DNA from: Escherichia coli
GTDB lineage: Bacteria; Pseudomonadota; Gammaproteobacteria; Enterobacterales; Enterobacteriaceae
Length of the DNA stretch: 64,000 bases
Assembly (NCBI RefSeq): GCF_050920415.1
Contig: NZ_CP169310.1
Strand: one strand, 5' to 3'
A program made the position numbers. Every line of letters begins with the position of its first letter. Position 1 is the first letter of the stretch. Of this stretch, positions 6,001 through 9,000 are shown piece by piece.

Positions 6001-9000
6001 AAGAGTCAATCATTTGATAATTAATCTTAGCGCAAATCTGCGATCTGATAGACTTCGCTGCTTTCTCTTCTTCCAACGGCAATAACGAGTAAAACGACTT
6101 TCTCATCAATGACTTGATATACAAGTCTGTAGCCAGATGAACGAAGTTTGATTTTATAACGATCAGCATGACCATGTAATCGGGCTGCAGGTACACGTGG
6201 ATTTTCCAGCCGTTCTGACAGTTTCTTTTTGAATTGTTCACGGATGGTGTGGCCGAGTTTCTGCCATTCCTTCAGTGCTCTGCGGTCAAAAGCCAGTTCA
6301 TAGGTCATCCAGGCTAACCTTCACAATTTCCGGTTTTTTCATGCGCTCATCAGCAACAGCGTTTAACTCAGCATCTTCAGCGAGTTCTCGATAGTAGGCG
6401 TAAAGTTTTGGTGGAACGCAATAGAACGCCGGTTCGTTTCGGTTCAGGATCGCAACAGCGTCCCCTTCACCTTCAGCTACGGTTCCCATAGGATTTTTTT
6501 TTAGGTCAGTAATACTGGCCGCTGTGGTTGTCAGGATTTGATAACTCATAAGCCCTGTATGAACGCCTCCCCGTTTGCAAGGCTTCCGTTGTCTGACATC
6601 GACGAGTAGTTGCAGCTCTGTATCCGGCCTTATTGCAGCCAGAGCTGCGGGCCACTATGAGATTCGCTGACCTGAGCCTTATTCTCCGTGCGGACTTGAT
6701 GTCCATGGGCCTATTCAGGTTTATCAGGTCACGGTCTTACCTGTCGTTGTCATCACATCGGCCGCCATAGCAACCTTTCAGCATTCACCCTTTTTAAGGT
6801 TTGATGTTTATCAGTCTCAGCAATTAATATGGTCTGATACTGACGTGATTCTTGTCGTATTTACGTCCGTGAGCAGCTATTGCCCACACTGTTCGTGCCA
6901 GCTTGTTTGCCATGGCGACGATTGCCACACTGGCCGGACGACGTTTTTTCAGTTCGGTTATCCACGGGCCTGGTTCTCTGGTCAGTAATGCTGCCGCCCT
7001 TGCTCCGTGGATAAACAATGTCCGGAGGTAGGGATCACCACGTTTACTTATCCCCAGCAGGCGGATTTTTCCTCCTGAGCCAGTCTGTCTGGGCACCAGA
7101 CCAACATAAGCCGCGAACTCTCGCCCTGATTTAAATGCAGATGCTTCCCCCATGGTGACCACCTCTGCCGTCGCAATAAGTGGTCCAATGCAGGGAATAT
7201 CCAGCAACCGTCTACAGGTCTCATTCTGCCTGGCCACACTGGTAAGCTGTTTTTCGATATCATCTATCAGTGAGTCCATCTCACTCAGTCTGTTGTACTG
7301 GTCTTCCAGCACCGTAATGAGATACGGTGGAAGTCTCTCTTTCATCCGCTCCAGTGCTTCAGGGAACTCCCGCTCCATCGCTGCCCGACCTTTGTGAATG
7401 CTTTCACCAAACTCCAGTAACGTCCCGTGCAGGGCATTAATTTGTGCGGTCCGGAACTTCACCAGTTGCCTGCGGGTCCGGTGCAGAACAAGAACTGACT
7501 GCTGTTCTTCTGTTTTGACGGCGATTTCTTTACCTGGCTGCTGAACTGCCATCCAGATAGCCCTGGCATCCATCACATCATTCTTATTGCCCATGACAAA
7601 TGCCTTAACGAAGCGGGCCTGCAACAATCGGACTTTATGACCCAGTTTTGTCAGTTCCCGGGCCCAGTGCTGAGAGCCTCCACAGGCTTTCATGCCAATC
7701 AGGCAAGGTTCGCGGTTACTAAAGAACGTCAGAAAATCTCTGCTGCGTAGTTGCTTATCCACCACTTCACCTGTGTGCTCATTGATGAAGTGAACCTGAA
7801 TCAGATGTTTTGCGATATCAACGCCAACCGGTGTATATTTTATTTGTTGAGTCTCCAGTCTGAGGGAGTCTTATGCATCCCGTATTGGACTATGATGCCG
7901 CAAATCTGCGAAGCTCCACACCTTCCTGTATTTTCCCGCTATCTACCTTTGTGCTACGGATTTAATGGTGGGAGGCGTTCATCTCATTCTCCGTTTGTCT
8001 TATTGTCATAATAGCATCTTTAAAAGCACTCTTAAAAGTGCTTGCATTGAAAAAAACATCAGAACAGGTGAGATATATCTCTTTCCGACATCGCCTTAAA
8101 ACACTTTGAATCACGTTCTGAACATTTTCTCCATTTCGTTGCAATCAGTCCTGGCTTAACGGCTGTTAACGCCGTTCAACGCTTTTTAACGGCCTTGTTG
8201 CTGTGATCTGCTGTCATGATCCAGATAGCAGTTCAATCTTGATCAAAACTTCCGCGAGGCAACAATTGTTTTGTGAATACCCTCTAAAACGTGCAGTATC
8301 GCATTCTAAGCGATTTTTTCCATTTCACATGTTTTCCTCATGGTTATGTAAATAGACCCGTTTTAGTTCCATGCATTTTTTGAGAACCCGGCCAAATAAT
8401 GGTGAAGTCGGTATTCCTCCGGTGTCATATTGTTCAGTGATTCATGCGGGCGTTCATAGTTATATTCTGATAACCATTTCTCCGTAATTTCCTGTACTTC
8501 ATTCAGCGTTCTGAACAGATAAAAATCGAGTATTTCTGTACGGTATGTCCTGTTAAAACGCTCAATGAAAGCGTTCTGCGTCGGCTTACCCGGCTGGATG
8601 AACTCCATTTTTACTGCGTGTATCTCTGCCCATTCAGCCAGCGCCAGAGAGATAAATTCCGGACCATTATCCATGCGTAGCATGACCGGATAACCGCGGT
8701 TTGCCGCGATCCTGTCAAGTACACGGACCACTCGCAGAGCTGACAGATTCAGATCGATTTCAATCGATAACGCCTCACGATTAAAGTCATCAACGACATT
8801 GAACGTGCGAAAACGACGGCCACAGGCCAGCGCATCATGCATAAAATCGACAGACCAGCTCTGGTTCAGCGCTTCTGGCGTAGCCAGTGGCGAGGGATTA
8901 CGCACCGGAAACCGTTGTTTGCCTTTACGGCGAAAATTCAGCTTCAGCAGACAATAAATACGATGGATCCTGTTGTGATTCCACGGGTATCCTTGCCGTC

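Follow-up and report, generated by a model that had tools for sequence, protein, structure and literature searches.

A probably pseudogenised IS1111-group insertion sequence, with ATA for its transposase start codon, in the yefM ribosome-binding site of an Escherichia coli plasmid lineage

The window analysed here, a stretch of 64,000 nucleotides of Escherichia coli DNA (contig NZ_CP169310.1, RefSeq assembly GCF_050920415.1), carries at positions 6556-7989 an insertion sequence (IS) of 1434 bp on the minus strand, the strand of all the features described below unless otherwise stated. With a probability of about 0.9, this is a fixed and decaying copy of an RNA-guided IS of the IS1111 group (IS110 family), whose transposase (recombinase) gene, 6824-7843, has been pseudogenised. 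The family, its mechanism and the exact sequence are already public, and the sole correction is that the intact call in RefSeq should be a pseudogene.

The frame of the transposase gene comprises 339 codons plus the stop and is delimited by the RefSeq annotation on identical plasmids together with Pfam and NCBIfam matches, while mechanical ORF (open reading frame) callers place the start at an internal GTG (7763-7765, Val27), giving an ORF of 313 aa (6824-7765) whose product would be without residues 1-26, including the catalytic D9. The in-frame codons upstream of this GTG encode IKYTPVGVDIAKH..., and the in-frame translation of 6824-7960 reads ...RDA*DSLRLETQQIKYTPVGVDIAKHLIQVHFINEHTGEVVDKQ..., the frame being closed 5' of the start codon by a TAA at 7871-7873. 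Between this TAA and GTG 7765 no ATG, GTG or TTG is found, the valines being encoded by GTT and the leucines by CTC or CTG. An earlier note on this stretch had claimed exactly this, namely that the conserved N-terminus of the family lies upstream of the called start, preceded by a stop and without any usual initiator, and translation bears it out. The extended translation is matched from residue 8 by the Pfam model DEDD_Tnp_IS110 (PF01548; 42.9 against a cut-off of 29), in its C-terminal half by PF02371 (72.5 against 21.3) and over residues 6-327 by NCBIfam NF033542 (322 bits against 140), so that membership among the IS110 family transposases is supported by all three curated models. Since the Pfam and NCBIfam matches reach into the upstream stretch, which includes the first catalytic aspartate, D9 (in GVDIAK), this stretch is genuine protein.

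At the codon where the protein should begin, ATA (7841-7843) is found in the window, and the aligned codon is ATG in 12/12 other readable relatives, that is, in 10 E. coli copies (77-96% DNA identity), in Xenorhabdus and in Enterobacter; the aligned E. coli copies from other sites include those of the A20 chromosome, STEC299, pCUVET18-1475.2, ISEc11, ISEc66 and ATCC 25922. The ATA is confined to copies at the yefM locus of this plasmid lineage, where all six of the locus-sharing copies read have it. Because every other readable relative has ATG, the ATA is a derived allele, produced by a G>A transition at 7841. As judged from these alignments, the absence of an ATG reflects the lesion of a pseudogene rather than an unusual way of initiating translation. 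The earlier note had left the choice between an unusual start codon and an inactivating 5' lesion: the lesion stands, while a family-wide start architecture does not, intact members having ATG at exactly this codon, and the start region had not been misread. The lesion needs to be qualified in two respects, as an annotated initiator is still made of the ATA, with translation lowered and maybe not abolished, and as inactivation does not come from the start codon alone.

The Shine-Dalgarno (SD) sequence of the gene, GGAG at 7853-7856, lies 9 nt 5' of the start codon and is kept in all copies, with a lineage-specific C>A at 7848 between the two. An in-frame CTG at 7858-7856 was considered as an initiator and discarded, as it is part of the conserved SD stretch and is not required in any relative.

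A second lesion, probably more decisive than the lost ATG, affects the active site. Codon 52 (7688-7690) is AAA (Lys) in the window lineage and GAA (Glu) in all other copies, changing LIGMEACGG to LIGMKACGG. When a profile of 11 proteins was aligned to the sequence of the IS621 structure (PDB 8wt6), position 52 fell opposite chain residue 62, which is read as native E60, the second DEDD residue, because the 8wt6 chain exceeds the native protein by two residues, an offset deduced from the chain length and the sequence. In the same alignment D9 corresponds to D11 of IS621, D89 to D102, D92 to D105 and S266 to S241, the catalytic serine of the Tnp domain, with GISKRGD opposite RMSKAGH. Three members of the DEDD tetrad are therefore present (D9, D89 and D92), and lysine replaces the glutamate found at position 52 in 10/10 other copies. 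According to the IS621 study (PMC11208158), D11, E60, D102, D105 and S241 form a composite active site in which mutation of any one residue abolishes recombination. K52 counts against an active enzyme, not against descent from the IS110 family. In addition, codon 218 (7190-7192) is TGC (Cys), in alignment with the glycine of IPGIG, a conserved motif in the Tnp domain.

More generally, among the sites that do not vary in 9 intact copies, the derived changes of the window lineage number 8 nonsynonymous (M1I, E52K, K211R, G218C in IPGIG, A227E, A229V, K252R and T271P) and 2 synonymous, whereas the private changes of the intact copies number 47 and 98, respectively (Fisher p = 0.004, against the window lineage); under random mutation, 76% nonsynonymous changes are expected for this gene. 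This excess reads as the signature of lost constraint. M1I, E52K, G218C, K252R and T271P are also present in 98.8%-identical sisters at the same locus (L005, L006), and K211R, A227E and A229V, which go beyond the changes common to these two, are newer. Two other sisters at the locus with both ATA and K52 carry, respectively, an internal stop (L004) and a frameshift (L008), and are flagged as pseudogenes by the Prokaryotic Genome Annotation Pipeline (PGAP). Taken together, E52K and the substitutions at invariant positions are predicted to kill the enzyme even if it is translated, a loss of activity deduced from the IS621 mutagenesis and from the absence of the allele from every other site. Instead of the features of a functional autonomous IS, the copy thus has an ATA start, E52K and G218C, and an allele known from one locus only.

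The confinement of the allele is documented over a large sample. Thirteen independent complete E. coli assemblies, of plasmids of ~198-242 kb found in isolates from cattle, food and humans, agree at 100% of positions over 1801 bp. In the 5,426 complete genomes of E. coli, 18 records have a copy of at least 97.9% identity, as have 9 PLSDB plasmids, and in all of them it lies at the yefM site; neither in these genomes nor in PLSDB is the allele found at any other site. The yefM site is also occupied on pSTEC299_2 of strain STEC299 (L007), by a copy that retains both ATG and E52. This copy was not kept as an orthologous ancestor and not used to order the events, as along part of the gene its IS groups with copies of the A20 type and the flanking DNA comes from another yefM lineage. 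It is at least equally probable that the target received a separate insertion there, and the occupancy of this site in STEC299 suggests that the same yefM target has been hit independently more than once.

Several observations weigh against pseudogenisation. In an identical plasmid (L002, 3358-4377, corresponding to window 7843-6824), PGAP calls an intact coding sequence of 1020 nt from the ATA, without a pseudogene flag (WP_024166190.1, "IS110 family RNA-guided transposase", 339 aa), and some full-length protein may be made from it, since AUA initiation reaches ~1-2% of that of AUG in E. coli reporters (preprint 10.1101/063800), so that the ATA is expected to lower translation and maybe not to abolish it. 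The window copy itself has neither a premature stop nor a frameshift, the synonymous and nonsynonymous counts are small, and the IS621 mutants described in the available portion of PMC11208158 are alanine substitutions, not E-to-K changes.

The same observations could be taken to mean that the ATA is a selected initiator of low efficiency, through which a functional transposase would be maintained in very small amounts. The start call of PGAP, the residual initiation at AUA and the SD 9 nt upstream agree with it, and down-tuning could pay under transcription from the toxin-antitoxin promoter described below. This is nevertheless very unlikely, as the ATA is derived and found at one locus only, against ATG in all other readable relatives, the same lineage has E52K, G218C and the nonsynonymous excess, sister copies have gained a stop or a frameshift, and no second site with the allele has been found. 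Still harder to credit is translation from the internal GTG 7765, or from an adjacent GTG, into a shorter functional protein: the 313-aa ORF does start there, with an AGGTGA string just upstream, but the product would be without D9 (equivalent to the essential D11 of IS621), all relatives are 339 aa long with a conserved MKYTPVGVDIAKH N-terminus, and K52 would be present all the same. A sequencing or assembly error behind the ATA can be practically dismissed, given the 13 identical independent assemblies and the presence of ATA in all six locus-sharing copies read. Pseudogenisation of a once functional gene is hence retained.

The identity of the element rests on its ends as well as on its gene. 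Its boundaries were set by comparing the junctions of 17 copies, by the empty site and by the extension rule of the group, and may be off by 1 nt either way, as AG is present at both junctions; wider boundaries proposed by megablast (6545-7994) were rejected on the strength of the subterminal repeats and the empty site, the similarity between the targets of different copies having extended them too far. Elements of the IS1111 group have subterminal inverted repeats of 11-13 bp, with extensions of 7 bp on the left and 3 bp on the right, and a longer non-coding region 3' of tnp, as stated in PMC11187229. In the window, the left repeat ATGAACGCCTCCC (7970-7982) and the right repeat GGGAGGCGTTCAT (6559-6571) form a 13-nt pair that is 100% complementary, the 7/3 extensions make the flanks rejoin exactly as in the empty site, and the 3' non-coding region of 268 nt (6556-6823) exceeds the 5' one of 146 nt (7844-7989). 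The assignment to the IS1111 group follows from the repeats inside both ends, the longer 3' non-coding region and the 91% protein identity to TnpEc11, the closest relatives being ISEc11 (~87% identical in DNA) and ISEc66. One base separates the repeat from its ISEc11 counterpart, and among the private changes in the untranslated parts are a 1-nt deletion at 6593 in the 3' non-coding region, a 2-bp deletion at 7889 in the left end and the C>A at 7848. A circle joining the right to the left end would, as read by eye, give TTGCAA-17-CAGAAT, a putative promoter. A scan of genome contigs with an 18-nt left-end pattern (17 specified bases) returned 26 loci, mostly chance matches in unrelated phyla, the genuine ones lying only in Serratia, Xenorhabdus, Yersinia, Providencia and Enterobacter.

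The 3' non-coding region contains the guide RNA (seekRNA) region, 6609-6757, recognised by alignment and by covariation. It aligns with the region of ISEc11 which, according to PMC11187229, yields seekRNAs of 82 nt and 154 nt. RNAalifold, run on 8 relatives, predicts a stem-loop at 6665-6733 with 6 compensatory base pairs and an internal loop on either side of an apical hairpin. The 5' loop holds a segment matching the top strand of the target, AAUAGGCCC (6707-6715), which is complementary, save for one G-T pair, to the right flank GGGCTTAT, and the 3' loop a segment matching the bottom strand, CACGGAGAAU (6681-6690), in which CACGGAG equals the left flank (A)ACGGAG. At the level of sequence, each target strand is thus matched by one segment, that for the top strand being placed 5' of that for the bottom strand, and in the relatives the guide segments vary together with the flanks, as in ISEc11, with GUGAAAAU and CAGUAUUUU for GTGA^AATACTG. 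A scan of 6300-8300 against Rfam (E<=1) gave no match to any seekRNA or bridge-RNA model in the library, which is not proof that the RNA is absent. The seekRNA region is identical at 149/149 positions to that of one of the 8 copies carried by E. coli A20. These alignments indicate that the RNA module and the ends are intact and that only the protein module is broken.

In the corresponding region of the copy on pCUVET18-1475.2 (L009, 1740-1888), a single G>U changes the bottom-strand segment to CACUGAG, which matches the flank of that copy, CACTGAG, within IS21; insertions at this position of IS21 are also present in other strains (A36, CP099210, CP099214). As far as the sequences go, this looks like a natural one-base retargeting event.

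A copy with a dead protein and a sound guide could be a non-autonomous element, mobilised by ISEc11-clade transposases present in the cell or supplying its guide RNA in trans. The seekRNA shared to the last base with the multi-copy element of A20, the structure backed by covariation and the perfect subterminal repeats are in keeping with this, and PMC11187229 reports that the non-coding region of ISEc11 works in trans and that seekRNAs appear not to be limited to very closely related transposases; moreover, strain 08-00022, which hosts an identical plasmid, has ISEc11 on its chromosome. Mobilisation in trans is nonetheless improbable, since the allele occurs at no other site in the 5,426 E. 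coli genomes or PLSDB, the repeat is one base off that of ISEc11, and the left end and the 3' non-coding region carry the private changes described above, including the 2-bp and 1-nt deletions. A second IS110-family gene in the window was rejected as a complementing source, being only 34% identical.

The insertion site itself is well defined. The IS lies within the GGAGG Shine-Dalgarno sequence of yefM, 6 nt 5' of the ATG and co-oriented with the operon, and the empty site, ...GACAAGCGGA^GGGCTTATGAGC in plasmid NZ_CP122865, has no bases that are duplicated around the element, as is typical of the site-specific insertion of the IS1111 group; the uninterrupted site occurs in ~580 E. coli records, almost all of them plasmids. 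The target is ACGGA^GGGCTTATG, of which the left half, ACGGA (7990-7994), is the 5' part of the yefM SD sequence and the right half, GGGCTTATG (6547-6555), ends with the yefM start codon (6549-6547).

On this basis, a history can be proposed. An active relative would have inserted, by means of its seekRNA, into the yefM ribosome-binding site of the plasmid; the insertion would then have become fixed in the plasmid lineage, and the transposase gene would have lost its selective constraint. Decay would have followed, with the change of ATG to ATA (G>A at 7841), the catalytic E52K, the replacement of the IPGIG glycine by cysteine and five more substitutions at invariant positions. Translation from the ATA would attain no more than a few percent of the normal level and would yield a protein predicted to lack catalytic activity, so that the copy could not move by itself.

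Directly downstream of the IS lie two intact toxin-antitoxin genes, yefM (6298-6549) and relE (6027-6308), given by the ORF list and by PGAP (together 6027-6549). Upstream of the IS, at 8008-8043, a promoter-like TTAAGA-16-TATTAT (8035-8008), found by consensus match, overlaps a palindrome AAGCACT/AGTGCTT (8043-8024), found by reading; in the empty site the promoter-like sequence sits directly upstream of yefM, and the two are probably the promoter and operator of the toxin-antitoxin operon. The IS has destroyed the yefM Shine-Dalgarno sequence (now ...CATACA|GGGCTTATG) and parts yefM-relE from the probable promoter and operator by its whole length. Both genes are intact in every plasmid with the insertion, and one possibility is that the antitoxin is expressed by read-through across 1.4 kb of IS. 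At 7962-7994, the host SD half ACGGAG is followed by AATGAG and, in the left end of the IS, by ATG AAC GCC TCC CAC CAT TAA, a mini-ORF of 6 codons behind the toxin-antitoxin promoter and ribosome-binding site, which is probably incidental because its length is not conserved in the relatives.

The location of this insertion is shared by other members of the ISEc11 clade. In 17 junction pairs (window 6547-6555 with 7990-7994, and loci L001, L003, L007, L009-L015 and L043-L048), the insertion point falls in a purine-rich, Shine-Dalgarno-like string, and 15 of the 17 have an ATG, mostly as ATGA, at a distance of 6-10 nt downstream, ISEc11 itself being the exception. At at least 7 sites this ATG is the annotated start of a co-oriented gene (yefM, sodC, fdrA, and genes for a DNA methylase, an ABC substrate-binding protein, a C40 peptidase and a DUF4942 protein). 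The guide pairing does not predict the G of the ATG and would prefer T, and ATGA resembles the left end of the element itself (GAATGAG-ATGAACGC). No mention of an SD/ATG targeting pattern is made in the available portion of the seekRNA paper (PMC11187229). A broader proposal, speculative and rather unlikely, would be that the copy is dead as to its protein and alive as to its RNA and that, with its perfect seekRNA and ends and its place just behind the toxin-antitoxin promoter, it serves as a non-autonomous RNA-guided element or as a guide donor for ISEc11-clade transposases, with the guides of the clade (that of ISEc11 not included) aimed at SD plus ATG; if true, the elements of the clade would preferentially land just 5' of start codons, co-oriented with the gene.

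Elsewhere in the window, 8363-8905 and its flanks form a patchwork of IS fragments, with pieces of the IS3, IS256 and ISKra4 families that are partial or frameshifted in the identical plasmid L002, and such surroundings fit an old, recombination-scarred region. At 19868-20920 lies the second transposase gene of the IS1111/IS110 family, unrelated to the first (34% identity), with intact MEACAG, IPGIGP and ISKRGD motifs and a likely start at an internal ATG; it resembles IS4321/IS5075. It is adjoined by an IS3-family-like integrase ORF on the plus strand (20998-21879).

The importance of the present case lies mainly in annotation hygiene, as RefSeq carries an intact "IS110 family RNA-guided transposase" where the comparative evidence is for a pseudogene, and catalogues of bridge-RNA and seekRNA recombinases mined from databases should screen out such copies. 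Natural guide variants of the ISEc11 clade that point at ribosome-binding sites and start codons could be of interest for studying or re-programming these systems.

Among known systems, the nearest is ISEc11, said to have been described in 2006 by Prosseda as a member of the IS1111 group of the IS110 family. Like the window element, ISEc11 has a DEDD/Tnp transposase of 339 aa, 13-bp subterminal repeats with short asymmetric extensions and a longer non-coding region 3' of tnp with a seekRNA, in which the top-strand and then the bottom-strand segment are arranged around a hairpin, and it makes no target duplication. The target differs, being ACGGA^GGGCCTAT-like for the window copy and GTGA^AATACTG for ISEc11, because the guide segments differ, and the two elements also differ in length (1434 bp versus 1443 bp) and in the ATA for ATG, E52K, G218C and the other lesions of the window copy. 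The guide architecture of ISEc11 is treated by Siddiquee et al. (2024; PMC11187229). Closer still in sequence, at 96% identity, is the element present in E. coli A20 (8 copies), A36 and pCUVET18-1475.2, with the same guide segments, ends, target type and seekRNA region; these copies look active because they keep ATG, E52 and G218 and occupy several sites, and the window copy is the decayed version.

As regards the start codon, the AUU initiators of infC and of IS911 orfB are selected, conserved and regulatory. A near-cognate AUN codon stands behind a Shine-Dalgarno sequence there as in the window, but the ATA of the window is private, recent and accompanied by other damage. The bridge-RNA recombinases of IS621 and ISCro4 (IS110 group; PDB 8wt6, 9t56) likewise combine a RuvC-like DEDD domain with a Tnp domain that bears the catalytic serine, the positions D9, E52, D89, D92 and S266 of the window protein family corresponding to D11, E60, D102, D105 and S241 of IS621, although they are distant in sequence from the window protein (E ~1e-8, mainly over the Tnp domain), and their group lacks subterminal repeats and has its guide RNA encoded on the 5' side of the gene (PMC11187229).

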